Positions 6,427 to 57,074 of a DNA stretch of 64,000 nucleotides are shown one piece after another. How positions within the stretch are numbered: position 1 is the first letter of the stretch; each line of letters opens with the position of its first letter. The stretch is from Acutalibacteraceae bacterium. Its GTDB lineage: Bacteria; Bacillota; Clostridia; Oscillospirales; Acutalibacteraceae. The stretch spans positions 2,352 to 66,351 of the forward strand of contig JAZRTO010000047.1 of NCBI GenBank assembly GCA_045652065.1. Direction: 5' to 3'. The position numbers and the translations under genes were made by a program. Below the pieces are notes generated by a model. The model saw only the letters and a list, made by a program, of their open reading frames with translations. It was not told where the DNA came from and ran no database searches.

Positions 6427-6436
6427 AACATTTAAG

Positions 6437-6466: not shown

Positions 6467-6509
6467 TAATTTGTCTTGTTTTTTTGGTAAATTGTGATAT
6501 AATATTTTT

Positions 6510-6646
6510 GTTGTTCAGAAGAGTAACGGCGGGACAGAAGTTCCTTTTTTTGTTTTTTATTACACGTGAAAGATACTACGAAGGTATCATTATCTCAGAA
6601 GGGATAGTGATACCCTTTTTGTGTTTTGAGAAAGGAACTTGAAACA
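6510..6646 (+). promoter_or_regulatory. Structured 5' leader (unclassified riboswitch/attenuator candidate)
   Basis: The promoter is TGaTATAAT at 6495-6503. A small hairpin GGGAC-AGAA-GUUCC with a U7 run lies at 6531-6551. A 12-bp terminator hairpin lies at 6583-6614 with a U-run. A 10-nt anti-SD AAGUUCCUUU (6538-6547) is perfectly complementary to the SD region AAAGGAACUU (6631-6640). Confidence 0.4.
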
Positions 6647-7183: not shown

Positions 7184-7184
7184 T

Positions 7185-8273: not shown

Positions 8274-8297
8274 GGATAGCCTTCATCGGTTTTTTTT
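8265..8297 (+). terminator. Rho-independent terminator
   Basis: Stem AACCGATGA/TCATCGGTT followed by T8. It overlaps the stop codon. Confidence 0.65.
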
Positions 8298-8368
8298 CAG
8301 ATTGCTGCATTATTCTGAGGGAATGGTTCATAATTCTGATATTGACAAAATATAAACAAACTTATTGC

Positions 8369-8397
8369 TTGACAATAACTTATGCTTGACTTATTAT
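8369..8397 (+). promoter_or_regulatory. Candidate rnf promoter
   Basis: TTGACA at 8369-8374, a 17-nt spacer, and TATTAT at 8392-8397. Confidence 0.4.
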
Positions 8398-8468
8398 TAA
8401 TATGTATATCTATGTGTCAGCATATGCGATAATTTTATAAGACAAATATCGAAGAAAGGTTTTTTGTT

Positions 8469-33756: not shown

Positions 33757-33916
33757 TTGAATTGCTCCTTTTTGTTTTGTCAAAGGTATTTTATCATATT
33801 AAGCTGAATATAACAACACCAATTGTAAATTCTGAATATCAATAATGTTAAAAATGCTTGTTGTATGTATTTTACTGTGATATACTTAAAATAAAGTAAA
33901 ATACGGAGGGAACATT

Positions 33917-40421: not shown

Positions 40422-40456
40422 AGTAATCTCTCCTCAAAAAAATAATGTTGCAGGTA

Positions 40457-41617
40457 CTATATTGACCACATACTGTCAAGGAATCGGGTTATTCTGTGTG
40501 GAAATGCTCTGAAAAATCCGTCGACATTGTTTTTCAGTTCAACACCGTCTACATAAATTGCTGTATCCTTAGTAAGCCCCTCGCCTGCAAGAAGCAATCT
40601 TGCGGCAGCAGGAGGTGTCAGCGAAATATCATAGTCACCGTCGGTTTTATAGGTTATTTTTGCTTTTTTGTGCTGATATTCAACCTCGAAAACTCCGTTG
40701 TTGTGCTCTATTGTGTCAATGCTTTTAAGTCGGAAGATGCCGTATTCCTCGGGATACTCATTGTTTTCGAGAATTGTTCTGATATTATAGATTCTTCCGG
40801 CAGCACCGCCTCCGTGCTCATATACAGCACCTGTGATCCTGTCGGCAATCACAGCGAAGGGGGAGCCCTGATACTGATTCTTTACTAATATATGCTTTAC
40901 AAGGCCGTCATAATTTCTGAGAAAGCCTATAAGACCGTATAAAGCCTCGGGGGAGAGTACATACAATTCTTCAACCGTAAGAACATCAGGTCTTTTTATT
41001 GTGAAGCGAACGTATCCGTCAGCAGCTCCGTTTTTGTCGCGGCGGAAATATGTGTAATCGGATTTCTCAAGAGGAGTGTCGCAGAAATGCTTTTTGTCCT
41101 CGCGGAGTGTCAGAAGATTTTCTCTTAATGCACATTTGTTGTGAAGCTCACTTAATTCATTGAACTGCTCTCCTGTGTAAAGGACAGTATCCGTATTACG
41201 GGGAATATTCTTAAGTGCTTCAAAGGGAAGCTTTATTGCAAACATACGGTTGAGATTTGCATAGCCGAACTTTTCATAATATTCGATTGAAAAGGGAGAC
41301 AAAAAGCCCAGAGCCCAGTTATTCTGAAGTGCAGTTCTTTCAATTTCACGGAAAATCTCTCTGATGCCGCCCATCCGTCTGTATTCAGGCTGGGCACATA
41401 CTCCGCTGACAACAACCGAGTCGAGAATATTGCCGCAATAATTGCATCTGAAATCAAAAATTTCAGCTCCCGCAATCAGCTTTCCGTCATGAAATGCACC
41501 GAGCACGGGTATTTCCACGTGGGTATCCTCTTCCTTATTGAAATTCCAGATAAAGGAAGCCGACGAAACCTTAAGGTAATCAACGCCCTCGTTATTGGTT
41601 ATATATCTTACTTCCAT
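40457..41617 (-). CDS. Eis-like GNAT N-acetyltransferase (GNAT + SCP2-like C-terminus)
   Basis: AQPEYRRMGGIREIF acetyl-CoA motif. The 386-aa length is typical of Eis-type proteins. Confidence 0.65.
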   Translation of the reverse strand: MEVRYITNNEGVDYLKVSSASFIWNFNKEEDTHVEIPVLGAFHDGKLIAGAEIFDFRCNYCGNILDSVVVSGVCAQPEYRRMGGIREIFREIERTALQNNWALGFLSPFSIEYYEKFGYANLNRMFAIKLPFEALKNIPRNTDTVLYTGEQFNELSELHNKCALRENLLTLREDKKHFCDTPLEKSDYTYFRRDKNGAADGYVRFTIKRPDVLTVEELYVLSPEALYGLIGFLRNYDGLVKHILVKNQYQGSPFAVIADRITGAVYEHGGGAAGRIYNIRTILENNEYPEEYGIFRLKSIDTIEHNNGVFEVEYQHKKAKITYKTDGDYDISLTPPAAARLLLAGEGLTKDTAIYVDGVELKNNVDGFFRAFPHRITRFLDSMWSI

Positions 41618-41638
41618 AGCATTCTCCGTTTTACGGTA

Positions 41639-43240
41639 TTATTTTTTTGAATCAACAGTAATCTGTTCATTTGCCATCGCTTCAAGCATATCCTTGTTAT
41701 CGCTTTCAACAACCTTTGTCATCATTACACGACGTGCAAGAAGCTCCTTATACATAGCTTCCTTCTTTTCGTTGTTAAGATCATAGAAAAGCATAGGGAT
41801 AATACCGAGGGAGCCCGTAACTGCAGGGATAATTGTGAACATTGCAAACAGATAGAACTTGACCTTATCGGTCTGCTCCGTTCCCTGTCTGAAAGCATTG
41901 ACCTCGTAGCCGATAAGCTTTTTAATTGCGGTAGTAACGACGTTACTTGTATTTGAAGAAATTTTTGCTGCAATATCCTTTGTAACTGAAGCCATAGCCT
42001 CTGTACGGTAGCCGTTTTTCCATTCGCAGTAGTCCATTGCTTCGTTGTACATTTCCGTTCCGATAACGGATTTAAGACCGAAGAATAATGTCCAGATGAT
42101 TTCCCAGAGAGCCATTGCAATTCCCATGGGCACAATTTTCTGATACATACCGCCCGAGAAATCCTTTTTCATACCAAGGCAGCCGAAGAAGAAGACGGGG
42201 ATGTAGAGAATGTTACCGATTTCTTTTGCAAGAATATAAAGCAGGCGGCTTGAGAAATGTCTTCTCATCCATGGAACCCATGCATAGCTGGCAGGGCTTA
42301 TGGGAGCAGCGGGAATGCCTGCAACAAGAGTCATTGAAGAGAAGTGCAGAACATCGGTATAATAGTCATCCTGACTGCCCTTGATTGCAAATCCGCTTAA
42401 GAAATCGGAAAGGGTAATAAGAAGCAGAGGTTTATTGTTTATAACCGATTTAACTGACATAAGGACACTGGGGGATTTGATTGACTGCATAACTCTTTCT
42501 TTTGACATTCTGAAGAACCAGAAGGAAGCAGCACTTGAGCAAAGGGTTGTGAAAATACCCATACCTGAAAACAGTCCGGTATATGCCTTTGAAAGCTGTT
42601 CGGAGTTATCAAGATATTTGCTTCTTAAAACGTCAATGAGAATTGTTACAGCTTGCTCAGGCAGCTTTTCTCCGAAGAAGCCTGAGGCAAAGTTTGCCAT
42701 TGTAATAAGCCTTGTTCGGTCATTCGGGTGCGGTGTAATGGTTGACATAAGACCCGTTCTGGAAATTGTCTGGAATGTTGTTACACCTTCACGAATAACA
42801 GTCAGAAAGAGATAAAATGCGAATTTTATCATATTTGTCTGCGTTGTGCCTGCAAAGAAGTAGGGCATAAGCCAGTACATAGATGTAAGAATACATCCCG
42901 GAACGGCAAGAAACAGAAGATAAGGTCTGAACTTACCCCAACGGGTACGTGTCTTATCTACAATTGCGCCGAAGAAAATATCGTTTACTATGTCCCATAC
43001 ACTGTTTAATGAGTTAACAAGAGTCTGAAGCCCCAAATCAACCCCCAATATGCTGGTAATAAAGCGTGTGGAATAAATGTTGATATTGAAGCTTTGTGCG
43101 GCATCCCAGATAACAAAACCGAGTGTTTCCTTTGAACCTACATATCTGCGGTCCTGAGTTTCACCTACAAAATTCTGTTCATCTCTGAGGCGCAGTTGTT
43201 CAAATGATTTTGCATTTGAATCTGAAGTATTATTTTCCAT
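41639..43240 (-). CDS. MFS/GPH-family glycoside:cation symporter
   Basis: About 12 TM helices, with GAIVDKTRTRWGKFRPY typical of GPH transporters. Confidence 0.75.
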   Translation of the reverse strand: MENNTSDSNAKSFEQLRLRDEQNFVGETQDRRYVGSKETLGFVIWDAAQSFNINIYSTRFITSILGVDLGLQTLVNSLNSVWDIVNDIFFGAIVDKTRTRWGKFRPYLLFLAVPGCILTSMYWLMPYFFAGTTQTNMIKFAFYLFLTVIREGVTTFQTISRTGLMSTITPHPNDRTRLITMANFASGFFGEKLPEQAVTILIDVLRSKYLDNSEQLSKAYTGLFSGMGIFTTLCSSAASFWFFRMSKERVMQSIKSPSVLMSVKSVINNKPLLLITLSDFLSGFAIKGSQDDYYTDVLHFSSMTLVAGIPAAPISPASYAWVPWMRRHFSSRLLYILAKEIGNILYIPVFFFGCLGMKKDFSGGMYQKIVPMGIAMALWEIIWTLFFGLKSVIGTEMYNEAMDYCEWKNGYRTEAMASVTKDIAAKISSNTSNVVTTAIKKLIGYEVNAFRQGTEQTDKVKFYLFAMFTIIPAVTGSLGIIPMLFYDLNNEKKEAMYKELLARRVMMTKVVESDNKDMLEAMANEQITVDSKK

Positions 43241-43323
43241 AAAATATCACCCCGAAGAATTTATTAGCTTTATGTTAGCAGATAATGCTAAGCATTACAA
43301 TATTAATTATAGATTTTACCCGT

Positions 43324-46300
43324 TTATTTACGGCTGTCGGTCAGTTTTTTTACATCCTTTTTATATTTTCGTCTGTTGTTAAGGCTACGTAATATGTAAT
43401 ACCCCTCGTCCATTGCATACTTATTGTGGAAGTCTCCAAGCTTTACATTTATTGAGAAGGTTCTGTCAATGAAGCGGTCAAGGAAGCATTCAAGCTTGTT
43501 GGGATACATCAGCCTTTTCGCATAATCGGAAAACTCATAGTCAAATTTGCGTTTTTCCAGCTTATCAAAATGTTCATTTCCCTTAATGAAAGGCGTTTTT
43601 CCTTTTGTTGCTGTTGCTGCGAAAATTACTATATCCTCATCCTTTGGAAGTACAATTTCACCGCATCCTTCAAGAGGAATTTCAGCATGGAAAAGATAAA
43701 ACTGTTTTGCAATCATATTGCCGTCTTTATTGTGAGAGTGGGTAAATGTGTGAGCCTGAGGAACCGGATTTATATAACCCGTAAGTCCCTGCTGCATAAG
43801 GTCCCAGTGTCCCAGAGCCTTGAAGCAATCGGGAATCGTAACCTCGGTTACCTTATCACCACAGGTGAATTTCACCTTTTTTTCTCCCGAAAGAGAGGTA
43901 AGCAGAATATGTATATTGTCTGCATCGGCGTTTATTGTACTGCCGTCACATACAAGACAGTTAAGCTTATCCTTTGAAAATTCATAATTGACTCCTGAAT
44001 ATAAAAGAGATTCGGGAGTAATTTCAAGCGGTACCGAAATGCCGTTTTTGAGAGTTGAAGCCTGACAGTTTTTGTCAGAGGTAATTCCCGTGCTGTTGAA
44101 TTTAAGTGTCAGGGGAGTGCCGCAGTCTGCAGATTTTTCTTCCTTCTCAAAGATAAGAGCAAAGCTTCTTATTGAATTCCCGTTAATATCAAAGCTGAGT
44201 TTTCCGTCCTTTACAGGGTAAGAACCCAGTTCAACCTCATCTCCACGTATTTCAAAGGCTTCTTTAACGGGTAAGGAGAATACAGCTTCCACATTTTCAG
44301 CCTTTGCACCTGAACACTCGGTAACACGTAAAATAACTCTGTCTGAGTCCTGAGCTTTTTTGAGCGCGGTTATTCTTACTTTATCGTTATTTAATTTTGC
44401 AGCGGAAAATTCTCTGCCGCCGATTCCCTCGTGTACATCCGTAATGAATGTGTGCATAGGCTGACAGAAGCAATCTGCAAAACTCTGTATACTGTCAGGT
44501 GAGCCTTCGTGGCCCATTATTGCGAAAGAATAGCGGTTAAGTCCCATATCCATTATGTGCTGAGAGCACTCCCAACGGTAATTTGCCATAGGTGTGTGAA
44601 CTATGGTCAGGCGAAGTGTGGAAGCATCGGGCTTGTCCCATCCGGTTCTTGAATCGCTGAAAACTGTAACACCGAAGTTTTCTGTTTCATCTGTTATATC
44701 TGCCCACTTCTGTGCGGGGACTTCATACAGCTTTTCTGTGTTAGTAGGACGCTTTATATAACCTGTACCTATATCGTAATTTGCATTGATATTCTGTGCC
44801 GTGAAATTAAATTCAGCCTTGAGAAGGGATGCTTCCTCTCTCCAGTCAGTTTCATTGTAAACAGAAACATATCTGCTGTCGGGGTCAAGAGAGATAATCT
44901 GTGTAAAACTTGATTTTCCGGAAGTTTTTGTAATTTCAAGGGAAACAAGAGCAGGACCGCAGTCATTTATTCTGATTATCGGAGCTGCTGCATACATGTA
45001 AGGCTTTTCTTTGCAGTCCTCGTATTTTATTTCCCATGCGGGCCAATCAAAGCTGTGGGTATTGTTAAGCACGGAAAGTCTTACGGGATTTTTCAGAAGC
45101 TCTTTTCCGAGAGCTTTATCGAAAATACTTTCTATATCTCCGTTTTTATCAATTTTTACGGTTAAATTTTTGTTTTCAATACAGCTTTCTGAAACGGAAA
45201 GCTCAGTATCAATACTGCAGGTGTTTGCTGCTTCTCTTACATCAAATACTGAAAGACCGCAGGAGGGAACAGCTGCAAAAAATGTAATTATTCTTTCTTT
45301 TTTCGAGATGATTTTTGTCTGCGAGGGAAGCTCTTTACCGTTTTTATCAAAGACTGAGAAGAAGTTTCTGTCAGAATTAATAGTGACACTTACTGCTCCC
45401 GTTCTGTCATTTATTCCTTGTACGGGATTTGATACAACAACGGGAATACCTTTACAGAAGGATGTATCAAGCTGTCCTGACAGAGTTTTACAGGCGGCTG
45501 TATATTCTTCAGAAAATGTATTTAATGACTGTACATAGTCGTTGTGATTTCTGTTGTAGCACTTTTCAAAGGAGGTGCCTGTGATATCATCGTGGAAATG
45601 GTGGGCAATTACCCGTTTCCATGCTCTATCAAGTCCGTCTGAGGGATAGTCTGCCAGTCCTTTTATGTATGCGGCAGTTGAGAATCGTTCAGCGGCATCT
45701 GCAAGGAGTTCACATCTTCTGTTCCAGCGTTTTGTGACTGTTCTTGCAGTATAACTTCCTGCACCGTGTGCCGTAAGAAGAAATTCACCGTCATAAACGG
45801 GCATAATTGCTTTTTGAGCATCGCTCATATTTTCAAGCTTTTCGAAAAATTCCTTTGTTGTTGCAGAGTAAACCTCAGTTTCGGCGTGCTTATTATTTCT
45901 CTGTGCTTTTATTACGTTTTTAACGGAGGATATATGAGGTGAGCCGCCTCTGTCACCGATTCCGTGATAGGCGAAAGTGAAATCAGGCAGATTTTTCTGT
46001 CTGTTATCTTCTATTTTTTTAAGTATTCTTTCTGCTTTATGAAGGGGTCCGAAGGCTGTCGTATACGCAAAGGGCATAAGTGCCGCCCAAACACCGTTGC
46101 CGTCAGCACCCGTCCATTTTCCTGTATCAAAGGGTACGGGTACGGAGCTTCCCCAGAAAAGCTTACCTGTTGAAAATCCCGTAAGTCCAGAATGTGCTGC
46201 AACCGTCGGCAAGGATTTTCCGAAGCCGAAGCAGTCGGGCAGGAAAATGTCGTTTGATTCGGTACCGAATTCCTTCCTGAAATATCCGTTACCGTAAAGT

Positions 46301-46617
46301 ATATTTCGGGTAAGTGCTTCGGGAGAGGGAATATTTACGTCACCGTTTTCATAACAGGCACCGTTTGGGTTCCATCTGCCGTTTTTTATATATTTTTTCA
46401 GCTTTTCGTATTCATCAGGATAATACTCCTTGATGAATTCATATCGGATGCTGCCCTCGAAATTGAATTTATATTCGGGGTAAGTGTCAAGAAGTCTGAA
46501 ATTTTCCTTTAGAGTCTTCGGAATATATTCCGAAATAGTCTGTTCAAGTGTCCATAGCCAGGATGTGTCAAGATGAGCAGTAGCAATTGTGAAAATCTGA
46601 GGTTTTTTGTTTTTCAT
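43324..46617 (-). CDS. Glycoside hydrolase family 38 alpha-mannosidase
   Basis: IATAHLDTSWLW, GDRGGSP and HHFHDDITGTS motifs. 1097 aa, with no signal peptide. Confidence 0.9.
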   Translation of the reverse strand: MKNKKPQIFTIATAHLDTSWLWTLEQTISEYIPKTLKENFRLLDTYPEYKFNFEGSIRYEFIKEYYPDEYEKLKKYIKNGRWNPNGACYENGDVNIPSPEALTRNILYGNGYFRKEFGTESNDIFLPDCFGFGKSLPTVAAHSGLTGFSTGKLFWGSSVPVPFDTGKWTGADGNGVWAALMPFAYTTAFGPLHKAERILKKIEDNRQKNLPDFTFAYHGIGDRGGSPHISSVKNVIKAQRNNKHAETEVYSATTKEFFEKLENMSDAQKAIMPVYDGEFLLTAHGAGSYTARTVTKRWNRRCELLADAAERFSTAAYIKGLADYPSDGLDRAWKRVIAHHFHDDITGTSFEKCYNRNHNDYVQSLNTFSEEYTAACKTLSGQLDTSFCKGIPVVVSNPVQGINDRTGAVSVTINSDRNFFSVFDKNGKELPSQTKIISKKERIITFFAAVPSCGLSVFDVREAANTCSIDTELSVSESCIENKNLTVKIDKNGDIESIFDKALGKELLKNPVRLSVLNNTHSFDWPAWEIKYEDCKEKPYMYAAAPIIRINDCGPALVSLEITKTSGKSSFTQIISLDPDSRYVSVYNETDWREEASLLKAEFNFTAQNINANYDIGTGYIKRPTNTEKLYEVPAQKWADITDETENFGVTVFSDSRTGWDKPDASTLRLTIVHTPMANYRWECSQHIMDMGLNRYSFAIMGHEGSPDSIQSFADCFCQPMHTFITDVHEGIGGREFSAAKLNNDKVRITALKKAQDSDRVILRVTECSGAKAENVEAVFSLPVKEAFEIRGDEVELGSYPVKDGKLSFDINGNSIRSFALIFEKEEKSADCGTPLTLKFNSTGITSDKNCQASTLKNGISVPLEITPESLLYSGVNYEFSKDKLNCLVCDGSTINADADNIHILLTSLSGEKKVKFTCGDKVTEVTIPDCFKALGHWDLMQQGLTGYINPVPQAHTFTHSHNKDGNMIAKQFYLFHAEIPLEGCGEIVLPKDEDIVIFAATATKGKTPFIKGNEHFDKLEKRKFDYEFSDYAKRLMYPNKLECFLDRFIDRTFSINVKLGDFHNKYAMDEGYYILRSLNNRRKYKKDVKKLTDSRK

Positions 46618-46784
46618 AAATTTTTCTCCCCGTTAATATTTAACATTTTTACTTTAGCATAAATAATATACTTTGTCTATATATACAGCACATTTTCGGT
46701 TTTTACTTGTATTGTACGGGAAATAATAGTATAATTATATTTACAAAAATTTGTCTGACACTTCTGTCGGAGGGAGAAAAGAAA

Positions 46785-48260
46785 ATGACAGTAAATGAAT
46801 ACCTGAATAAAATTGATGAAGTTAATGAAAAAGGAAAGCATAAGCCTGACTGGAGCTCACTTTCTCACCATAAGGTACCTTCATGGTATATGAATGATAA
46901 GCTGGGTGTGTTTATTCATTGGGGTATTTATTCTGTACCCGCATACGGAAACGAATGGTATTCGAGAGGTATGTATTATAAGGAAGCTCCCGAATTTGAA
47001 CACCATATAAAAACATACGGACCGCAGAAGGATTTCGGCTATAAGGATTTTATTCCTATGTTCAAGGCCGAAAAATTTGATGCGGCTGAATGGGTAACAC
47101 TTTTCAAAAAAGCAGGAATAAAATATGTTATGCCCGTAGCCGAGCATCATGACGGTTTTGCTATGTATGACACCGAATTTAATCGTTGGAATTCCGTAAA
47201 TATGGGGCCTTGCCGAGATGTGGCGGGTGAACTGAAGGCAGAGTGTGAAAAAAACGGTCTTACCTTCTGTGCATCAACCCACAGAGCTGAGCACTACTTC
47301 TTTATGAATCCGGGACGAACAATAGACAGCGATGTTAACGATGAAGCTTACCGTGATTTTTACGGTCCCGCATTTTACTGTGATGAATTGGATGCAAGTG
47401 TTCTTGGTGAAACAACAGAGAATCCGTATACTATAGGTGCAAGTGAAGAATGGCTTCAGGACTGGCTTGTCCGTACCTGTGAGCTTGTTGACAGATATCA
47501 GCCGAGTGTACTTTATTTTGACTGGTGGATTCACAATCACTCCTTCAAGCCCTATCTCAAAAAGCTTGCGGCGTACTATTATAACCGAGCAGAGGAATGG
47601 GGTAAGGAGGTTACCATAAACTACAAGCATCAGGCGTTTCCCCCGACGGTTGCTGTGTTTGATGTGGAAAGAGGAGCGCTTACCGATATCTCTCCCTTAT
47701 ATTGGCAGACCGATACTGCAATCGGTAAGTGTTCATGGGGTTACAGAAAGGACAATATATACAAGAGTGCCCGTCAGGTAATCTGTGACCTGGTAGATAT
47801 TGTTTCCAAAAACGGAAATCTTCTTATTAACATCGGTCCCCGTGCAGACGGTACAATAACCGAAGAAGAAACAGAGGTTCTTCTTACAATGGGAAAGTGG
47901 CTTGAGATAAACGGCGAAGGAATTTACGGCACAACCTTCTGGAAGAAGTTCGGAGAGGGAAGTGTCAATGCTGAGGCAGGCTTTTTCAAGGATGGCGAAG
48001 AAAAGCAGTTCACAAGCGAGGATTTCAGATTTACATATAAAAACGGCAATCTCTATGTTTTCCAGATGCGTCCGTCAAAGAATATAAAAATAAAAACTCT
48101 CAGAAAACAGGGAATGCGAGACTTCTTTCTTGAAAGTGTTTCGCTGCTGGGAAGTGATGAGAAAATCGATTTTGTAAGAAATGAAGATTATCTTGAAATC
48201 AACTTAAAGGGTGAAATTGAAACCGATTTACCCATTTGCTTCAGAATGGAAATCGGCTGA
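46785..48260 (+). CDS. Glycoside hydrolase family 29 alpha-L-fucosidase
   Basis: FIHWGIYSVPA and AEHHDGFAMYDT motifs. The ATG at 46785 follows GGAGGGAG. Confidence 0.85.
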   Translation: MTVNEYLNKIDEVNEKGKHKPDWSSLSHHKVPSWYMNDKLGVFIHWGIYSVPAYGNEWYSRGMYYKEAPEFEHHIKTYGPQKDFGYKDFIPMFKAEKFDAAEWVTLFKKAGIKYVMPVAEHHDGFAMYDTEFNRWNSVNMGPCRDVAGELKAECEKNGLTFCASTHRAEHYFFMNPGRTIDSDVNDEAYRDFYGPAFYCDELDASVLGETTENPYTIGASEEWLQDWLVRTCELVDRYQPSVLYFDWWIHNHSFKPYLKKLAAYYYNRAEEWGKEVTINYKHQAFPPTVAVFDVERGALTDISPLYWQTDTAIGKCSWGYRKDNIYKSARQVICDLVDIVSKNGNLLINIGPRADGTITEEETEVLLTMGKWLEINGEGIYGTTFWKKFGEGSVNAEAGFFKDGEEKQFTSEDFRFTYKNGNLYVFQMRPSKNIKIKTLRKQGMRDFFLESVSLLGSDEKIDFVRNEDYLEINLKGEIETDLPICFRMEIG

Positions 48261-48290
48261 TAATATTAGAAGTTCAGAGGATGATTACGT

Positions 48291-49979
48291 GTGATTGATA
48301 TAAAGGGCTATATTCTTGCCGCATTCGGCGGAATGCTTGGTGTGTGCGAGCATATAAAGCTGAATATTTATTCCAGAAGAGGTCTGAAATTACAGGAGAA
48401 AACCGTAAAACGGCTTATGCGCTGGAATAAATCAACGGAATACGGAAAACTTCATAATTTCGGTAAGGTAAAATCCATTGAGGACTATCAGAAAATTGTG
48501 CCTCTTTCAACCTATGCCGATTATGATGAATATGTATGGCGAATGGCTGAAGGAGAGAGAGGGCTTATTACAAACCTTCCCGTAAGAAGATTTACCGAAA
48601 GCTCGGGCAGTACGGGAAAATCAAAGCTTGTTCCTTTGTCTTTCTGGGCAGAGTGGGTGGCTCAGTGCTTCGGTTTTTCGGCTCCTGTAGGATGTGCAGT
48701 AAAGTGGTTTCTTAAAAAAGGTAGACTTCTTCCTCCTCAGAAGGGGCTTTTAACGGCGGAAACCTCCTGCAGAAAGCTTAAAGGCGGTACAGTCAGTTGT
48801 CTGTCTTCCATTCCGCTTCTGAATCTCCGTCCCCTTGTGCCTTTCTTTGCAACATCCCCTAAGGAAGTTCTTTTCCCTGACGGATCGGATATGGATATGC
48901 ACTACTTAAAGCTGAGATTTGCACTTATCAATACAAAAACAAGCTATCTCGGCACAATATTTATCACAACCCTCGAGTCAATGTTCTTCTATATGGAAGA
49001 AAACTGGGAGATGCTTTGCGATGATATTGAAAAAGGTATCATTAATGAAAATGTGAATGTGCCTGACCATATAAGAAGAAAGCTCAATAAGAAACTGAAG
49101 CCTATGCCTGAAAGAGCAGAGGCTCTGCGCAAAGAGTTCAGAAAGGGTTTTGATGCCTCTCCCATAATTCCGAGAATTTTTCCCAATGTAGAGTGGCTTT
49201 ACGGAATGGGGACTGGTGCGCTGTCCCTTTATGCAAAGAAGCTTCGCAGATACATAGGAGAGGATATGCCCATACATTACCTCGGTTATACTGCAACGGA
49301 AGCTTTTATGGCGGTGCCTATAGAACTCAATTCTTTTGAGTATGTTATGCTTCCTCAGAACGGATTTTACGAGTTCCGTCCTATTGAACAGGAAGGGTAT
49401 GACAATTTACTTACTATAAAGGATCTTGAACCGGGTAAAGAGTATGAATTGATTCTTACAAATATGAGCGGTTTTTACCGTTACAGAATTGAAGATGTGG
49501 TAAAATGCACGGGATATTACCATCAGGTTCCGAAAATCACCTTCTGTTACCGTCTTAATCAGATAGCCAACATCAGCGGTGAAAAAATCAGTCAGATGGC
49601 ATTTGATGAGATTGTGGATAATCTTTCTGATGCTATGAATGACTTATACGTAGGCTACAGTATTTATCCCGATCGCACAACCTCTCCGGGACACTATGTG
49701 CTTCTTGTAGAAACCGCTTTTCCTGTGTCGGAAGAAAAGAGGTTCCGCTACAATGAGGCATTTGAAAAGATGCTCTGTAAGGGAAATGTTTCCGTGGAAC
49801 CTCTTATAAAAAGCGGTGCGCTGGGACATCCCGAGGTAAAATTCCTACGTCACGGTACTTATGACGATTACAGAGAGGTCTTGCGCCGCCGCGGTGCAAA
49901 CTTAAATCAGGTAAAGCCCATTAAAGTAATAGATAATGATGAGAAGAAGGATTTCTTTTTCTCGCATATTGAAGAATAA
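48291..49979 (+). CDS. GH3 (Gretchen Hagen 3) family acyl-acid amido synthetase-like adenylating enzyme
   Basis: ANL/GH3 motifs ESSGSTGKSKLVP, YTATEAF and YRYRIEDVV. It has a GTG start and lies 30 nt after the fucosidase gene with no terminator between them. Confidence 0.8.
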   Translation: MIDIKGYILAAFGGMLGVCEHIKLNIYSRRGLKLQEKTVKRLMRWNKSTEYGKLHNFGKVKSIEDYQKIVPLSTYADYDEYVWRMAEGERGLITNLPVRRFTESSGSTGKSKLVPLSFWAEWVAQCFGFSAPVGCAVKWFLKKGRLLPPQKGLLTAETSCRKLKGGTVSCLSSIPLLNLRPLVPFFATSPKEVLFPDGSDMDMHYLKLRFALINTKTSYLGTIFITTLESMFFYMEENWEMLCDDIEKGIINENVNVPDHIRRKLNKKLKPMPERAEALRKEFRKGFDASPIIPRIFPNVEWLYGMGTGALSLYAKKLRRYIGEDMPIHYLGYTATEAFMAVPIELNSFEYVMLPQNGFYEFRPIEQEGYDNLLTIKDLEPGKEYELILTNMSGFYRYRIEDVVKCTGYYHQVPKITFCYRLNQIANISGEKISQMAFDEIVDNLSDAMNDLYVGYSIYPDRTTSPGHYVLLVETAFPVSEEKRFRYNEAFEKMLCKGNVSVEPLIKSGALGHPEVKFLRHGTYDDYREVLRRRGANLNQVKPIKVIDNDEKKDFFFSHIEE

Positions 49980-49991
49980 CGGAGAAGCTAT

Positions 49992-51365
49992 ATGGATTTT
50001 AATTCACATCGTGAATACCTTTTATTAAAAGGATTTTCGGACGAAAAGGTAATATCTGATCTTATTGAATATAAAAATGCACATTCCGTAACAAGCAGTA
50101 AAAAACTGCCCACGGAGATGTATGATAAGGTTAATCTTATGTGCAGAAGCTATATGGACAGACTTGCCCGTTTTGAGATGGATTATGATTTTATTGTGGA
50201 TTCCGAAAAATTCAAGACAGTTGCGTTGTGCTGTCTTGAAACTGTGCTTATTCTTCGTTCACAGGTAATTAATCACCCTATTGCCCCTTACTGGAAGGTT
50301 GCGGATTATGATATCTCCGATTTTATAATTGAAAAAGAGGTTTACGATATTGAGGCAGCAAGGGAGGAATTCTTTTCCCGGGAAATCCCACTTAAAAGCA
50401 ATGTGCAGATGAATATAGGTCTTTATTACTGTAAAGGGAAAACTTATATTCTCTTTATCTGGAATCATATGTGCTTTGACGGCGGTGGATTTAAGATGTT
50501 CTGGAGTGATTTTTGCAGAAATTACACCGATTATGCTCTGCGCGGCATTTCTCCCGTAAATTTTTCTGTAGGCTCCCGTAAGTATACCGAGGTTTATAAG
50601 GATTTTGATAAGGAAAAAGCAAAGAAGGCAAAAGCTCAGTTTGCAAATGTTTCTCCTAAAGTTAAGTGTAGCTTTCCCTTTACCCCCGTAAACGGTGAGG
50701 AAAAGGTTATTATTGTTTCCCGTAAAATTGAAGCGGAATATTTTGACAAAGCAAAGGCTTATCTTAAAACCATAGGAGCTACGGTTACTGATTTACTTTT
50801 AGCTTCGTATATTGATGCGCTCGGTAAGATATCCGATTTGTCCCCCGCTGACAGAATAAGTGTCGCTTGTGCAACAGACTTAAGACGGCACATAAAAGAC
50901 CTGTCAACTGTCGGTTATACAAACCACGTTTCATTTATTCACTGCGCAATTGATAAAAAGGGGAGTGACCTTAAAGAGACACTCCTTCTTGTAAGAGATA
51001 AAACAAAAGAGCTGAAAAATGATGAGTTTATGGGACTTCACGGTCTTCCGCTTCTGAATATTGCCTATAAATCAATGGTGTATCTGCAAGCAGAGACTGT
51101 TGTAAAGCTTTTCTATAACAATCCCGTTTTGTCAGTCAGCAATGTAGGACTCATTAATCCCTTACAGTTCCCTCTCGGGGAATCAGGTCCATTTGATGCA
51201 TTTGTTGCGGGAGCTGCTAAAAATAAGCCCTGTGCTGTTATGACAGCTCTTTCAATCGGAGGAAATCTTTCAGCCTCAATGTGTCTTCGCGGTAATGAGC
51301 AAGACAGAGAAATTCTTGAGAAATTTTTCACTGAATTTGAAAGAAATATAAAATCATTCGTATGA
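49992..51365 (+). CDS. Standalone condensation-domain-like (HxxxDG) acyltransferase
   Basis: WNHMCFDGGG at residues 157-166 of 457 aa, matching the size and motif position of NRPS C domains and WS/DGAT/PapA enzymes. It starts 12 nt after the GH3 gene. Confidence 0.6.
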   Translation: MDFNSHREYLLLKGFSDEKVISDLIEYKNAHSVTSSKKLPTEMYDKVNLMCRSYMDRLARFEMDYDFIVDSEKFKTVALCCLETVLILRSQVINHPIAPYWKVADYDISDFIIEKEVYDIEAAREEFFSREIPLKSNVQMNIGLYYCKGKTYILFIWNHMCFDGGGFKMFWSDFCRNYTDYALRGISPVNFSVGSRKYTEVYKDFDKEKAKKAKAQFANVSPKVKCSFPFTPVNGEEKVIIVSRKIEAEYFDKAKAYLKTIGATVTDLLLASYIDALGKISDLSPADRISVACATDLRRHIKDLSTVGYTNHVSFIHCAIDKKGSDLKETLLLVRDKTKELKNDEFMGLHGLPLLNIAYKSMVYLQAETVVKLFYNNPVLSVSNVGLINPLQFPLGESGPFDAFVAGAAKNKPCAVMTALSIGGNLSASMCLRGNEQDREILEKFFTEFERNIKSFV

Positions 51366-51402
51366 AAAGACCGCCCTCAAAAAGTGGGGCGGTGATCTTT
51401 TA
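51366..51402. terminator. Bidirectional terminator
   Basis: Stem ACCGCCCT/GGGGCGGT flanked by an A-run and a T-run. Confidence 0.5.
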
Positions 51403-52233
51403 TATGTTCAGAAGTATAAGTGAGATGATTATCAGGCTTAATGCAAGCCATTGTTTTTTTGTCAATTTTTCTTTAAATACCATAACACCCACTAATGTTA
51501 CCAGGAGAATAGTTGCAACCGAGAATGTGGGATATGTAACAACTGCGGGGATTGTTGTGAGAGCTGAAATCAGGAATTTTGATGAGAAGAAGTTCGGTAT
51601 TCCTATTAATGCGCCGAACAGAATATCTTTTATTGCAGGCTTTTCTTTTTTTAGTATAACAAGAGTTAAGCAAATGATAAATGCAGTTGCAAAAGTGAAA
51701 AATAGAAACTGATTGGTAAGTGGTTCAGGTCCCAGGTATTCATAAACCTTAGACATCGCATCGGCGCTGCCGCCGAAAAGAAGTAAAAGAATGAGACTTA
51801 TGCCGAAATTTTTAATTGAGCTGCCTTTTTTCAGATTTATCAGAATGATTGCTATAACAGCTATAATAAATCCTGCTATCTGAATTGCAGAGGGGATTTC
51901 ATTGAAAAACAGAACGGAAAGCACGATAGGAACTAAAAGTCCTAATTTCATAAAAATTGAAGAAAGTACAATTCCGTGCTTTGCTGTATTTAACTGCAAA
52001 AGTAAAAAGCTTACAAGATAAAGCACACCGTTTATTACACCGAAGCCTGATACTTTCCCGATGTCGTTTGTAATCGGTATTATGTCAAAGCCGGTGTATA
52101 TTGCACCGCATAAGGAGCAAACAGCATAATTTGCTGCAAGCATGGAAAGCTTTCCTTTGACATTATCCGAGCTTATGCGCATTATTATTGAAATAAGGGA
52201 ACTGCAAAGTATTGCAAGAATTAAAAATATCAT
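51400..52233 (-). CDS. DMT/EamA-like membrane transporter
   Basis: About ten hydrophobic helices with a two-fold internal pattern. No soluble domain. Confidence 0.55.
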   Translation of the reverse strand: MIFLILAILCSSLISIIMRISSDNVKGKLSMLAANYAVCSLCGAIYTGFDIIPITNDIGKVSGFGVINGVLYLVSFLLLQLNTAKHGIVLSSIFMKLGLLVPIVLSVLFFNEIPSAIQIAGFIIAVIAIILINLKKGSSIKNFGISLILLLLFGGSADAMSKVYEYLGPEPLTNQFLFFTFATAFIICLTLVILKKEKPAIKDILFGALIGIPNFFSSKFLISALTTIPAVVTYPTFSVATILLVTLVGVMVFKEKLTKKQWLALSLIIISLILLNI

Positions 52234-52359: not shown

Positions 52360-53085
52360 ATGGACGATAAATGTATGTGTTGCAGAAAATCCGGTTTAAC
52401 AAATAATCAATTAAAGATAATTGCGGTAATAGCAATGCTTTGCGATCATGTGGGCAAAGAGCTTCTTGTGCAATTTGAATTTTTACAAATCATCGGAAGA
52501 ATAGCTTTGCCGATATTTGCTTATATGATTGCAGAGGGGTGCTTGTATACCCGCAACCGCAGGCAATATCTTATGAAAATTGCATTGTTGGCGCTGGGAT
52601 GTCAGCTTGTGTATTTTATTGCAGAAGGGTCGTTATATCAGAATATTCTTGTAACATTCTCCCTTTCTGTATTAACGGTATTTACAATTGATAATTTCCG
52701 AAAAAGAAAAGATATTTTGTCTGCTGTTCTGATGACCGCAGAAATGGCTATTGTAGTATTTTTATGTATAGGTTTACAGAAAATACCTGCTTTTGCCGGT
52801 TTTCGTATCGATTACGGTATATTCGGTGTTTTGCTGCCTGTTGCAGTGTATTTTGCTCCGAATAAACCATTAAAGATAATTTTTGCAGCTTTGACACTGA
52901 TCGCGCTTTCATTTGATATGGGCGGTGTGCAATGGTTTTCCTTAGCTGCTGTGCCGTTAATTATGTTGTATAACGAAAAACGAGGAAAACTTAATCTTAA
53001 GTATTTATTTTACATATTTTATCCCTCACATCTCGCCGTCATTTATTTAATAAAGCTTTTGCTGCAGAGCTTTAACATACTGTAA
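52360..53085 (+). CDS. TraX family membrane protein (second paralogue)
   Basis: NQLKIIAVIAMLCDHVG and IFYPSHL motifs in a polytopic protein. Confidence 0.75.
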   Translation: MDDKCMCCRKSGLTNNQLKIIAVIAMLCDHVGKELLVQFEFLQIIGRIALPIFAYMIAEGCLYTRNRRQYLMKIALLALGCQLVYFIAEGSLYQNILVTFSLSVLTVFTIDNFRKRKDILSAVLMTAEMAIVVFLCIGLQKIPAFAGFRIDYGIFGVLLPVAVYFAPNKPLKIIFAALTLIALSFDMGGVQWFSLAAVPLIMLYNEKRGKLNLKYLFYIFYPSHLAVIYLIKLLLQSFNIL

Positions 53086-53124: not shown

Positions 53125-54558
53125 TTATCCGATGATGAAAGTAGTTATGCTGTTGCCCTTAAGGCTTGCCGTAAATGAATTATCAATAACTGCAATTTCA
53201 GAAAGCTTTGTCCAATGCTCACCCTTTTCCATATCACCGCTTGTCCTGATTACATTTGCTGTTTTATTTTTGCTCAGGATATTCTTAAGTGTAAATGTAA
53301 CATTTTCGTCTGTTTGATGTGTATTAACAGCGACAATAACAGCTTTATCGGTGTTTTTATCGTATGCGGCAAGAGTGTGGCGGTCGTTTGTATGAATTAT
53401 TGTCATTCCGGGCTTTATATATCTTGAAAACTGACCGAAAGCAAAATACTTCTGTGTAAGATAAATTTCTTCGTTGTCAATATCGGCAAAAGCCGTGCCC
53501 CAGAAGCCTTTTGTAAGGTCAGGAATTCCGGGCATATCAAGACGGCCTTTTTCGTCGGGAATTTTTGAAATATATGCTGCTACAATCTGCCATATTACCC
53601 AGGCTGAAGGTGATAGGGTATTCATATCTTCAATGATTTTTTCCGCAAGCCACAATGCAGGTCCCATTTCTCCCGGATTTTCTCCGCTGACACCGCTCCA
53701 GTCGCTCTCATCCATCCACAGATTTTTGTTCAGTTCTCTTGCAAGCCTTCCTATATGGGGTATTGCCTTGCCGTATGTGTGGGTGCTGATTCGTCCTACC
53801 TCTGAGAGTGCCTGCTTGGAAAGGAGCTTTGTTGCAAAATACTGTGTTACGGTATTAGTTTCATCACTTGCCGTAACAACAATATCGTGAAGTCCTTTTT
53901 CTCTGAGAGCTTCTGCGGTTGCAATTATCACATTGCTTTGCATTTTACCCGGTGACACAAAACAACCTTCCTGCTTTTCAGAATATGCTTTCCAGAAGTT
54001 TGTGAAGGGTTCATTCATGGCAGCAAGACTTCTTACTCTGATGCCCAAATCTTTTTGAATGTAATCACATACATTTGCAAGATATTCTGCAAAGGGACGT
54101 ATATATATCTTTTTCAGATTATTGGTAACTGCATTTTTGCTTCCCGAGCTGCAGCCGCTTACTGTCATGTAATAAGGAGGGGAGTTTGAAAAAGCTTCAA
54201 CATAGGCATTCTTTCCGGCTTTTTTATAGCAGGCAGAAAGTACGGCAAGCTGATTTTTATCAGTATCAGTATTGAAAACAAAATTATTTTTTTCTTCGTC
54301 ATATTTCCACCATCCGGGCATTTCCGAATCTGTCCTTGTGATGTGATTGTGTGATGGGTCATCACCGCCGCCTATATTGTATCGCATAATATTCAGCGCA
54401 AGCCCGTCTTCTGAAAAGAAAAGATGAGCACTGTCTTCTGTGAGTTTTTTGCTGAAGCCTACTCTGTTTGCCCACCAACAAAGGCTTGTACCCCAGCCTT
54501 CAAAAAAGCCGTTGTTTGTTTTTGATGCATTCTCTAAAGAAACCGTGATTTTCTTCAT
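53125..54558 (-). CDS. Glycoside hydrolase family 30
   Basis: FEGWGTSLCWWANRVG, AMNEP (acid/base) and LWMDESD (nucleophile region) motifs. No signal peptide. Confidence 0.75.
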   Translation of the reverse strand: MKKITVSLENASKTNNGFFEGWGTSLCWWANRVGFSKKLTEDSAHLFFSEDGLALNIMRYNIGGGDDPSHNHITRTDSEMPGWWKYDEEKNNFVFNTDTDKNQLAVLSACYKKAGKNAYVEAFSNSPPYYMTVSGCSSGSKNAVTNNLKKIYIRPFAEYLANVCDYIQKDLGIRVRSLAAMNEPFTNFWKAYSEKQEGCFVSPGKMQSNVIIATAEALREKGLHDIVVTASDETNTVTQYFATKLLSKQALSEVGRISTHTYGKAIPHIGRLARELNKNLWMDESDWSGVSGENPGEMGPALWLAEKIIEDMNTLSPSAWVIWQIVAAYISKIPDEKGRLDMPGIPDLTKGFWGTAFADIDNEEIYLTQKYFAFGQFSRYIKPGMTIIHTNDRHTLAAYDKNTDKAVIVAVNTHQTDENVTFTLKNILSKNKTANVIRTSGDMEKGEHWTKLSEIAVIDNSFTASLKGNSITTFIIG

Positions 54559-54718: not shown

Positions 54719-55246
54719 ATGAATAGTGTCAGTTTAAGATATGCATCTGCCGAGGACGCGGAAGCCTTACGGGGTATATATTCGCATTATGTAGCAAATA
54801 CGGCAATTTCTTACGAATATGATGTGCCGACTGTCAGCGAATTCAGAAACAGAATAATTACCACTCTGAAGAAGTATCCTTATATCGTTCTTGAGGAGGA
54901 CGGTGTTGTTGTGGGCTATGCGTATGCAGGTCCTTTTAAAACAAGAGAAGCATACAGATTTTCTGTTGAAACTACTATTTATCTTAAAAACGGTCTGCAG
55001 AAAAAGGGCTATGGAAGAATACTTCTTACGGCACTTGAAAAAGAGCTTGCCGAAAGAGGCTTTACGAATGCAAATGCCTGCATTGCCTATACGGAAACTG
55101 ATGACGAATATCTTAATAAAAACAGCATGGAATTCCATTCCGCTATGGGCTACAGGCTTGTGGGTACCTTTCATAAGTGCGCTTATAAATTCGGCAGATG
55201 GTATGATATGATCTGGATGGAGAAATTTGTCGGAGAGCATAAATAA
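54719..55246 (+). CDS. GNAT acetyltransferase (phosphinothricin/YncA-like)
   Basis: IRYASAEDAEALRGIYSHYV...TAISYE and LQKKGYGRILL motifs. Confidence 0.75.
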   Translation: MNSVSLRYASAEDAEALRGIYSHYVANTAISYEYDVPTVSEFRNRIITTLKKYPYIVLEEDGVVVGYAYAGPFKTREAYRFSVETTIYLKNGLQKKGYGRILLTALEKELAERGFTNANACIAYTETDDEYLNKNSMEFHSAMGYRLVGTFHKCAYKFGRWYDMIWMEKFVGEHK

Positions 55247-55295
55247 AATATAAAACGTTCAAATAAAAATATGTCGCAGCAGGCAAAATATATAA

Positions 55296-55324
55296 TTGCA
55301 ACAGCGTATATTTTGTGGTAATAT
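55296..55324 (+). promoter_or_regulatory. Sigma-A type promoter for the second GH3 gene
   Basis: TTGCAA at 55296-55301, a 17-nt spacer ending in TGG, and TAATAT at 55319-55324. Confidence 0.5.
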
Positions 55325-55354
55325 TATAGAGTAATTTACTACCGGGGTGATTAT

Positions 55355-57046
55355 ATGGCAGTTTCAAATATAGGTGTTTTTCTCGGTAATATAGTTTTTA
55401 AGGGATTCAATCATTTCACATCAATCCCCATGGAAACTCAGCAGAAGACACTTGAAGCAATAATGAAAAGAAACAAGGATTGTGAGCTTGGCAAAAAGTA
55501 CGGTTTTTCAGAAATACGCACCCTTAGGGATTTTCAGGATAATGTTCCCTTATCTACGTTTGAAGACTATCTTCCGCTCATAAACCGTATGATTGATAAT
55601 AATGAGGATAATATTATTACGGGCAGTAAGGTTATAAGATACTGTTCCTCTTCTGGAAGTGTCGGAATTCCGAAGCTTCAGCCAAAAACCGCAAGAGATC
55701 TTTTTAATATGCAGTCTATGGGCTTTGCTGCAACACCAGCATGTGCTGCACACTATTTTAAAGAGAAGGGAATATACAAGAAGCTTCCTGCTCAGATGGG
55801 GCCCTTGCTTCTTTCTCTTAACGGTCATCCGCTCAAAAACGGTATGCGCTGTAACGGTGCGGGGCAGATTCCTTTCACATATCTTTTACCGCTTATTCCG
55901 TTTTTCTCTACCACTCCTCTTGATATTCTTTTTCCTGAGGATGAAGAAAATACAGATATTTCATATTTTCAGTTAAGGTTTGCTCTTACTAACAGAAAGG
56001 TCACATATCTCGGCTCAATGGTAATTACCCTTATGCTTACGATGTTTGAATACCTTGAGGCAAACTGGGATATGATTTGTAATGATATAGAAAATGGAAC
56101 AATTGATCCTTCTGTCAGATGTCCCGAATCACTTCGTACAAAATACGAAAAATTAAAACCCGATCCCAAACGAGCTGCAGAGCTTCGCCGGGAATTTGAA
56201 AAAGGCTTTGATACCGGTGTTCCTATTGCAAAAAGAATATGGCCCGATGTATGCTGGGGTTACGGAATGATAAGCTCTACACTTTCAATTTATGTTGAAA
56301 AGCTGCACCGTTATATAGGTGATCTTCCTCTTCATAATATGGGATATGCGGCCTCTGAAGGTTATATGGCAATGCCAATAACTCTCGATGCAAACGACTA
56401 CGTGCTTCTTCCCAGAAGTATTATTTATGAATTCTTGCCTGTAGATGCTCCTGACGGTACAAGACCGCTTCTTATGGATGAGCTTGAAGTGGGAAAAGAA
56501 TATGAAATTATCGTTACCAATTTTTCGGGACTTTACAGATACCGTATTCTTGATATTGTCAGGGTAACGGGATTTCATAATAAAACGCCTAAAATTGAAT
56601 TTCTTTACCGTTCAAATATGGGACTTAATGTTGCAAATGAAAAGACAACTACGCAGATGCTTGATTTCGTTGCAAACAAGGTGCAGAAGGAGTTTGATGT
56701 TTCCTTTAACGGCTACAGCTTCTATGGTGATACGGATGAGGCAGGCGCACTTCCCAGATACGCATTTATGTGCGATACAGCTTCCGATATTCCTACTGTA
56801 AAGAATGATGAGCTTGTGAAGTTTATTGATGAAGCTTTCAGAGAATGCAACGAAAAGTATGATAAATACAGAAGATGGGGAATGCTTCGCGAGCCGATTG
56901 TTTATCAATTGGAAACAGGTGCATATGCGGCATACAAATCTTTTCTTGTTGCTCAGGGCAGAGTGCTTAATCAGATAAAGCCAGTAGTTGTTATAAATAC
57001 TCCTGAAAGAAAAGAATTCTTCTTCGGGAAAATTCGTAAAAAATAA
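55355..57046 (+). CDS. GH3 (Gretchen Hagen 3) family adenylating enzyme, second paralogue
   Basis: CSSSGSVGIPKLQP, YAASEGYM and YRYRILDIV motifs. It is collinear with 48291..49979 over its full length. Confidence 0.8.
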   Translation: MAVSNIGVFLGNIVFKGFNHFTSIPMETQQKTLEAIMKRNKDCELGKKYGFSEIRTLRDFQDNVPLSTFEDYLPLINRMIDNNEDNIITGSKVIRYCSSSGSVGIPKLQPKTARDLFNMQSMGFAATPACAAHYFKEKGIYKKLPAQMGPLLLSLNGHPLKNGMRCNGAGQIPFTYLLPLIPFFSTTPLDILFPEDEENTDISYFQLRFALTNRKVTYLGSMVITLMLTMFEYLEANWDMICNDIENGTIDPSVRCPESLRTKYEKLKPDPKRAAELRREFEKGFDTGVPIAKRIWPDVCWGYGMISSTLSIYVEKLHRYIGDLPLHNMGYAASEGYMAMPITLDANDYVLLPRSIIYEFLPVDAPDGTRPLLMDELEVGKEYEIIVTNFSGLYRYRILDIVRVTGFHNKTPKIEFLYRSNMGLNVANEKTTTQMLDFVANKVQKEFDVSFNGYSFYGDTDEAGALPRYAFMCDTASDIPTVKNDELVKFIDEAFRECNEKYDKYRRWGMLREPIVYQLETGAYAAYKSFLVAQGRVLNQIKPVVVINTPERKEFFFGKIRKK

Positions 57047-57074
57047 TTGGTATTATAGTTAACGGAGGAAAATT

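Follow-up and report, generated by a model that had tools for sequence, protein, structure and literature searches.

The stretch of DNA analysed here, referred to as the window, comprises 64,000 nt of contig JAZRTO010000047.1 from an Acutalibacteraceae bacterium. At the locus of interest, a gene for a GH29 alpha-L-fucosidase is followed on the forward strand by the gene for GH3a, an enzyme of the GH3 family of acyl-acid amido synthetases, and by the gene for a free-standing protein of 457 amino acids (aa) related to the condensation domains of non-ribosomal peptide synthetases (NRPSs) (Table 1). An earlier inspection of the letters and open reading frames (the sequence-only reading) had presented the three genes as one apparent operon, and its genes, motifs and intergenic gaps of 30 and 12 nt were all confirmed where it had placed them. 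The fucosidase gene starts at the ATG at 46785, which is preceded by a GGAGGG ribosome-binding site, the listed TTG at 46707 being a mechanical extension of the frame; GH3a starts with a GTG codon and has a GAGGA ribosome-binding site upstream. No convincing terminator was found between the three genes (the fucosidase/GH3a spacer spans 48261-48290), and the terminator expected at the end of the unit was recovered as a terminator-like hairpin plus T tail, common to the unit and the convergent EamA gene. The promoter-like site in front of the fucosidase gene matches the consensus at 10 of 12 positions, and such sites are no commoner in the region than expected from shuffled sequence; another candidate promoter, within the 3' end of the fucosidase gene (48030-48059, 9/12), was not above background and was rejected. 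Rfam gave no regulatory RNA match (riboswitch or T-box) in the window. Neither tblastn, using two AcpP probes and the carrier of a divergent locus (L105, see below), nor a motif scan revealed a carrier protein in the 64 kb of the window, and no AMP-binding, thioesterase or phosphopantetheinyl transferase domain was present among the flanking window open reading frames that were scanned, in agreement with the sequence-only reading, which had seen no carrier, thioesterase or coenzyme A (CoA) ligase nearby. The most likely reading of 48291..51365 is a two-gene conjugation module, complete in itself and coupled in translation, which has shifted from one genomic context to another among Acutalibacteraceae and related gut Clostridia.

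Table 1 Features of the window and of the divergent cassette L105
Feature	Position	Strand	Evidence or remark
Promoter-like site 5' of the fucosidase gene, candidate for read-through into GH3a	46640..46669	+	Weak
GH29 alpha-L-fucosidase	46785..48260	+	Pfam Alpha_L_fucos (PF01120), 1.1e-100, 337.9 bits against a gathering score of 25.2
GH3a, GH3-family acyl-acid amido synthetase, 562 aa	48291..49979	+	Pfam N, M and C domains
GH3a/condensation-like junction, 12 nt	49980..49991	+	Translational-coupling distance
Free-standing condensation-superfamily protein, 457 aa	49992..51365	+	Motif, AlphaFold2 model, family profile
Intrinsic-terminator-like GC-rich hairpin and T tail, closing the unit	51370..51393	+	Common to the unit and the EamA gene
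EamA/DMT-family transporter, convergent with the pair	51400..52233	-	Pfam EamA, 2e-15
TraX-family membrane protein, putative acyltransferase	52360..53085	+	Pfam TraX, 1.8e-32
Paralogous GH3 cassette, GNAT + GH3b + MFS	54719..58445	+	Downstream of the pair
GNAT, ArsN1/phosphinothricin-acetyltransferase-like	54719..55246	+	163 bits against a cut-off of 210
GH3b	55355..57046	+	39 % identical to GH3a, 5.4 kb downstream; no condensation-like partner
MFS transporter	57075..58445	+	3' of GH3b
L105, larger NRPS-like cluster around the GH3/condensation-like pair	558..8730	One strand plus one convergent gene	
L105, first genes			AMP-binding enzyme (fatty-acid-CoA ligase/MenE-like), canonical stand-alone condensation protein (133 bits)
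L105, next			Terminator-like hairpin (read by eye), 74-aa PP-binding carrier protein (41.8 bits)
L105, last			GH3, condensation-like gene (31.8 bits, above the Pfam cut-off), triacylglycerol-lipase-like gene

GH3a contains the three Pfam domains of its family (N, 7e-69; M, 4e-24; C, 2.5e-14), with scores of 232.8, 85.0 and 54.4 bits against PF03321, PF23571 and PF23572 at a cut-off of 23.6 each. Its nucleotide-binding motifs, SSGSTGKSK at residue 104, YTATE at 333 and YRYRIED at 396 (YRIED at 398), fit the family patterns SSGT/SxGxxK (P-loop), YxxxE and YRxxD and are kept in 77-79 of the orthologues, and the protein aligns with the solved plant GH3 structures VvGH3-1 (3e-47, residues 29-545) and JAR1 (1e-50, residues 187-543). 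By family, GH3a is thus a putative acyl-acid amido synthetase, predicted to carry out both adenylation and amide formation. We rejected its identification as an equivalog of the bacterial enzyme OlsH, since it scores 62.9 bits against NCBIfam NF052613 where 620 are required.

The 457-aa protein scored 20.2 bits (E 2.7e-4) against the Pfam Condensation model (PF00668), whose gathering score is 30.6, so that the Pfam comparison suggested by the sequence-only reading came out far above the gathering score for the GH3 domains and below it for this protein; phmmer of the PDB sequences with the protein gave zero matches. The relationship emerges from its family, whose members are free-standing, 420-475 aa long and fall into 568 clusters at 90 % identity (573 representatives of the condensation-like family at 50 % identity, E ≤1e-3). 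Among 49 diverse relatives, 44 matched Condensation (best E 1.9e-18), 19 matched PapA_C and 12 matched WS_DGAT_C, and the orthologues in L104, L105 and L106 reached 31.8-35.2 bits against PF00668, exceeding the gathering score. A profile built from the 49 members found in the PDB the condensation (C) and epimerization (E) domains of NRPSs at 1.5e-18, PapA5 at 1e-7, VibH at 7e-6 and WS/DGAT at 1e-4, with E domains as the best matches and a weak score of 31.5 bits for AzeD (8S6L). The AlphaFold2 model of the protein (pLDDT 89.6, pTM 0.90) matched NRPS E and C domains in Foldseek with a probability of 1.0 and E ~1e-19. There were 272 PDB matches at E ≤0.001; the best 50 were C, E and heterocyclization (Cy) domains, SgcC5, TRI3, COSY and AzeD, all at a probability of 1.0, BAHD structures also occurred among the matches, and the top partner by TM-score was AzeD (PDB 8S6L, 0.70, TMq). 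The sequence-only reading had proposed a condensation-related protein from the HxxxDG motif, and the profile and the model agree in giving it the chloramphenicol acetyltransferase (CAT)/condensation fold.

The motif in the window protein reads W-N158-H159-M-C-F-D163-G164, with G164 followed by GG (HMCFDGGG), and the first His of the canonical HHxxxDG is replaced by Asn. W101, H159, D163, R298 and G386 are invariant in the 49 diverse relatives and G164 is at least 90 % conserved, while WNHMxxDG is present in 80/80 orthologues, the catalytic residues being intact in all copies. Judged by profile and predicted structure, the 457-aa protein is a member of the condensation/CAT superfamily that retains the second (catalytic) His along with the Asp and Gly of the motif. 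An epimerase identity was rejected: the EGHGRE motif of the bacitracin synthetase E domain aligns with m-v-D-L-R-r, which places R299 at the position of the Glu and R298 at that of the Arg. The free-standing HHxxxDG O-acyltransferases PapA5 and WS/DGAT, which use acyl-CoA or acyl-ACP (acyl carrier protein) donors and free acceptors, offer another comparison; the window protein itself matches neither the PapA_C nor the WS_DGAT_C Pfam model, and identity is very low. The family consensus contains GATVND..LAA and SN.G, stretches that may resemble the NDVVLA and SNVPGP motifs of WS/DGAT.

The co-occurrence of the two genes, which the sequence-only reading had put forward as a survey, was consistent throughout. 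With one genome per species, the survey comprised 80 loci from uncultured Acutalibacteraceae, Oscillospiraceae or Clostridia metagenome-assembled genomes (MAGs), many of them named after gut samples of ruminants and other herbivores (goat, deer, yak, cattle); the search alignment (A1) biases these loci towards relatives with at least 60 % identity. GH3 lies immediately 5' of the condensation-like gene and on the same strand in 80/80 loci, three of which are cut by the contig end so that the C-terminus of GH3 reaches the edge. The distance from the GH3 stop to the condensation-like start has a median of 4 nt and a range of -4 to 31 nt (75 measurable loci). When metagenomes were searched from the GH3a side, the condensation-like gene was present in 8/8 loci with enough downstream DNA. 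This obligate adjacency still holds where the condensation-like protein has diverged to 41-45 % identity (metagenomes from kangaroo, camel and others); the GH3 of these divergent pairs is 53-69 % identical to GH3a, so the partner evolves faster than GH3. Condensation-like relatives at 39 % identity or less lie in unrelated contexts with no adjacent GH3. The pair is maintained through at least six different upstream contexts, and since the upstream neighbour is transcribed divergently from GH3 in at least 13 of the 80 loci, the pair must have its own promoter there. The coupling of the condensation-like protein to GH3 is far beyond chance; it is genuine, yet specific to one subclade. Because condensation-like relatives exist without GH3 and GH3 paralogues without the partner, each enzyme is probably catalytically self-sufficient. 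Literature searches on GH3 enzymes with condensation partners and on COG4908 found nothing on a GH3/condensation-like pair.

The fucosidase does not share this conservation. It lies 5' of GH3 in 5/80 loci, all close relatives, plus L001, and is a local neighbour and no part of the conserved unit; of the three-gene operon proposed earlier, the GH3/condensation-like pair stands and the fucosidase falls outside it. Its co-transcription with GH3a in the window strain is possible because of the 30-nt spacer and the lack of a terminator. The surrounding genes for glycan degradation, together with its own GH29 family, make it a piece of a glycan-degradation region rather than of the GH3 unit. This neighbourhood extends over 38493..46617 (-) and 53125..54558 (-) and encodes DUF4838/GH20-like, GNAT, MFS_2 sugar transporter, GH38 alpha-mannosidase and GH30-like proteins. 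The earlier suggestion that the pathway acts on a product of fucose or host-glycan metabolism finds no comparative support, the upstream gene being variable and the fucosidase occurring there in just 5/80 loci.

Other upstream neighbours are more frequent. An aldehyde dehydrogenase lies 5' of GH3 in 24/80 loci, with spacers of 19-46 nt in 23 of them and 233 nt in one, and its best NCBIfam match is the benzaldehyde dehydrogenase MdlD (410 bits). MdlD is a class-3 aldehyde dehydrogenase. Going by this similarity, the enzyme could supply the carboxylic acid, giving an aldehyde-to-acid route for GH3. In L020 (844..3254) and about 24-30 other loci, GH3 is preceded, at short distances and in the same orientation, by a gene of the DHDPS family and the aldehyde dehydrogenase gene, and the DHDPS-family gene lies directly 5' of GH3 in 11/80. 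In 8/80 loci the upstream gene encodes a BenC/PaaE-like ferredoxin reductase, itself preceded by a CrtI-family flavoprotein gene. On the downstream side, the commonest neighbour is a convergent M20 peptidase gene beside PolC (adjoining pair in 42/80, present in 53/80). We rejected this peptidase as a partner by analogy with the plant ILR1 amidohydrolases: it travels with PolC in either order, is not in the window and looks like local synteny. A TraX gene is the next same-strand gene after the condensation-like gene in 6/80 loci, and a second TraX-family membrane protein is encoded in the window at 32977..33783 (-). The EamA neighbour is kept only in the close relatives L008, L013 and L032.

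Divergent relatives of the pair were found in larger cassettes. In L105, where the GH3 and the condensation-like protein are 66 % and 45 % identical to their window counterparts, the pair is embedded in an NRPS-like cluster (Table 1): the carrier stop overlaps the GH3 start by 8 nt, the AMP-binding enzyme lies two genes upstream of the pair and a further AMP-binding gene is convergent with the array. L107 (115..2023) has the same carrier immediately before GH3, and L106 has a long-chain-fatty-acid-CoA-ligase-like gene directly 3' of the condensation-like gene. The best matches of the AMP-binding enzymes of L105 and L106 are fatty-acid-CoA ligases. We know of no description of a GH3 enzyme beside a carrier protein. 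The window and the 80 close loci contain no homologue of the L105 carrier. Taken by their gene content, these cassettes tie the pair to thioester-forming and lipid-handling enzymes, and argue that the partner would be a thioester-dependent acyltransferase at least ancestrally or in some lineages. The carrier of L105 and L107 and the fatty-acid-CoA-ligase-like genes of L105 and L106 therefore weaken the carrier-independent two-enzyme pathway that the sequence-only reading had suggested.

GH3 genes also occur without the condensation-like partner. The second paralogue of the window, GH3b, which had been overlooked before, lies in a cassette of its own between a GNAT and an MFS transporter gene and scores 52.4 bits against the OlsH equivalog model NF052613 (cut-off 620). 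The GNAT+GH3b pair recurs 4-5 kb 3' of the GH3a pair in L021 and L022, and in L008 and L024 the GNAT alone is visible at the edge of the locus. This suggests that GH3 plus an acyltransferase is a recurring design in the Acutalibacteraceae-type bacteria of this set. In L108 (2278..7197), a GH3 gene whose product is 61 % identical to GH3a is followed by genes for a DUF819 membrane protein and a pyridoxal-phosphate-dependent amino-acid decarboxylase, with no condensation-like partner. This decarboxylase neighbour hints that the amine substrate of such GH3 enzymes may be a biogenic amine.

The closest known precedent lies in Singulisphaera acidiphila, where the GH3-like enzyme OlsH converts free fatty acid, ATP and ornithine to lyso-ornithine lipid with no CoA or ACP, and its operon partner OlsI, an alpha/beta-hydrolase, attaches the second acyl chain (PMC12493201, 2025). 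The view that bacterial GH3 enzymes are essentially uncharacterised, held in the sequence-only reading, is therefore outdated, OlsH having provided a first function for them in 2025. OlsH/OlsI and the pair in the window share the arrangement of a bacterial GH3-like enzyme and a second acyl-transferring enzyme in one operon, the OlsH/OlsI steps being sequential. They differ in that the partner here has a condensation fold, not an alpha/beta-hydrolase fold, and GH3a is no OlsH equivalog; moreover, the pair belongs to a Gram-positive gut Clostridium, and the published lists of orders in which OlsH homologues occur include no Clostridial order.

We tentatively prefer, at slightly less than an even chance, a sequential two-enzyme model in which GH3a makes an amide and the condensation-fold enzyme then transfers an acyl group from a thioester. 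In the first step, a free acid, most likely a fatty or aromatic one, would be adenylated by GH3a at the expense of ATP, and GH3a itself would couple the acyl group to an amino-acid amine or a biogenic amine, because it belongs to a family in which every characterised member, OlsH included, forms an amide. In the second step, the condensation-fold enzyme would, through His159, move a second acyl group from a thioester to a hydroxyl or amine of the free conjugate or its precursor, as its fold, its motif and the make-up of the divergent cassettes suggest. The donor in the window clade would be a housekeeping acyl-ACP or acyl-CoA, which we assume to act in trans; L105 and L107 would use a dedicated carrier protein instead. 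A doubly acylated lipo-amino-acid or a compound of the fatty-acid-amide type would result, following the logic of ornithine-lipid synthesis by OlsH and OlsI, except that the second enzyme has a condensation fold where OlsI is an alpha/beta-hydrolase. The identities of the genes, the fold, the conserved motifs and the constant adjacency are direct results of the analysis; what the enzymes act on, which of them acts first and what donates the acyl group are inferred. Several observations weigh against this model. The Condensation score of the window protein is sub-threshold, and AzeD, its best neighbour by TM-score, is a dehydratase and no acyltransferase. A carrier or CoA ligase in cis was not found in the window and the 80 Acutalibacteraceae loci; the carrier-linked variant occurs in only 2 of ~100 loci, and its carrier could equally serve GH3. 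The close loci all belong to a single bacterial family, and part of the adjacency is therefore shared ancestry. Finally, the proposed substrates are guided by neighbours that vary from locus to locus.

One alternative is that the partner needs no acyl donor and tailors the free GH3a amide in a lyase, dehydratase or cyclase reaction, His159 serving as the general base. This reading directly explains a window without carrier or CoA ligase, and precedents exist. AzeD is a stand-alone C-family dehydratase of a bicyclic carbamate from a Pseudomonas NRPS cluster (bioRxiv 10.64898/2026.07.17.738954); it acts on an untethered small molecule and is the top match by TM-score. Its clade lies near the E and Cy domains and often has a variable first His. 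The window protein is a possible member of this C_standalone (AzeD) clade: it is discrete, has a variant first His (Asn) and lies near E/Cy by its profile matches, the best of which are E domains, but the profile score to 8S6L is just 31.5 bits. AzeD differs in belonging to an NRPS gene cluster with no GH3, and its sequence similarity to the family profile is weak. In Arabidopsis, salicylic acid is made by the GH3 enzyme PBS3 (GH3.12) and then the BAHD-family EPS1, which acts on the free GH3 product and is reported to convert it to salicylic acid (PMC8584137). That pathway, too, has a GH3 amido synthetase followed by an acyltransferase-family protein, and Foldseek also matches the window protein to BAHD structures; however, it is a plant system of unlinked genes, EPS1 has an unusual change of an active-site residue, the catalytic His is invariant here, and its sequence places the window protein nearer NRPS C/E domains and PapA5 than BAHD enzymes. 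Against a tailoring role, the majority of characterised free-standing members of the superfamily are acyltransferases, and a donor-free enzyme would have no need of the carrier and fatty-acid-CoA-ligase-like genes of the divergent cassettes. Overall, we regard it as unlikely.

In another alternative, which we also consider improbable, GH3a merely activates the acid and the condensation-like enzyme forms the bond, as in an NRPS-like adenylation-(thiolation)-condensation system; the donor would be a carrier loaded by GH3 (dedicated in L105 and L107, a housekeeping ACP in the window clade) or, in line with the sequence-only reading, GH3-bound acyl-AMP with no carrier. The order carrier-GH3-condensation-like in L105, with its 8-nt overlap, and the same order in L107 resemble a dissociated thiolation-adenylation-condensation module, the obligate adjacency with near-zero gaps suggests a complex, and the carrier-less window fits the carrier-free variant. 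Each characterised GH3 (plants, OlsH), however, finishes amide formation alone (PMC12493201). GH3b and the L108 GH3 lack such a partner, condensation-like relatives occur without GH3, and the AMP-binding enzymes flanking the L105 pair are equally good candidates for loading the carrier. To our knowledge, no member of the condensation superfamily uses an acyl-adenylate donor, which also counts against this scheme. The specific claim that the two proteins make up a minimal non-ribosomal ligase with no dedicated carrier, by direct feed of the acyl-adenylate or with GH3 as a surrogate adenylation domain loading a carrier in trans, is in our view quite improbable. A related pathway in gut Clostridia, which together with OlsH/OlsI is a precedent for the sequential model, uses OaaC, a free-standing condensation enzyme that couples ACP-bound fatty acids to free amines (PMC13310621). 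Its adenylating enzyme is a separate protein, and L105 resembles it in containing carrier, AMP-binding and C genes; the OaaC pathway has a dedicated ACP, an NRPS-like pathway and a (D/H)HxxxD(S/A) motif, whereas the window has NHxxxDG, a GH3 adenylating enzyme and no ACP that we could find. The window protein was accordingly rejected as a member of the FAA-type (OaaC) clade. It is very unlikely, lastly, that the two genes are functionally uncoupled neighbours by descent in one family that serve unrelated pathways, of which the fucosidase operon would be a variant. All 80 genome loci do come from Acutalibacteraceae, Oscillospiraceae or unclassified Clostridia MAGs, and relatives of either gene are found alone; but the pair stays constant while its surroundings change, persists to 41-45 % identity in unrelated metagenomes and has gaps typical of translational coupling, and the adjacency of the fucosidase is confined to 5/80 loci.

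Several further genes were noted around these loci. About 10 kb upstream of the pair, 36609..37682 (+) encodes an Ntn-hydrolase of the choloylglycine hydrolase/acyl-CoA:6-aminopenicillanic acid acyltransferase family, which makes or breaks linear amides such as bile-acid conjugates. The window also contains a 1716-aa open reading frame at 27065..32215 (+) and a 590-aa one without a Pfam match at 61684..63456 (+). In the close relative L001 (11428..20097), radical-SAM, ScmC-like and PqqD-like genes and a gene for a 1995-aa protein without domain match lie 3' of the pair; this region resembles a cluster for ribosomally synthesized and post-translationally modified peptides and is not in the window.

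The pair is a conserved, so far uncharacterised module built on the known scheme of a GH3 followed by an acyl-handling enzyme, and not a categorically new one. It represents a distinct GH3 lineage in Gram-positive herbivore-gut bacteria that is locked to a free-standing condensation-fold enzyme, and GH3 paralogues of the same genomes form further small cassettes, one kind with a GNAT and an MFS exporter and another with an amino-acid decarboxylase. The series from carrier-GH3-condensation-like through GH3-condensation-like-CoA ligase to the bare pair is a natural experiment on the gain or loss of carrier dependence. Interest would rise sharply if the GH3 adenylate directly feeds the condensation-type enzyme: a member of the condensation superfamily supplied in this way by a GH3 adenylating enzyme would be a first, with L105 and L107 as its carrier-dependent relative. 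If N-acyl amino acids, fatty-acid amides or acyloxyacyl lipids are made, the pair would provide simple two-enzyme parts for amide and ester biocatalysis, and these bacteria would have a new ATP-driven and largely carrier-free route to a class of compounds that includes host-active ligands of G-protein-coupled receptors and Toll-like receptors.

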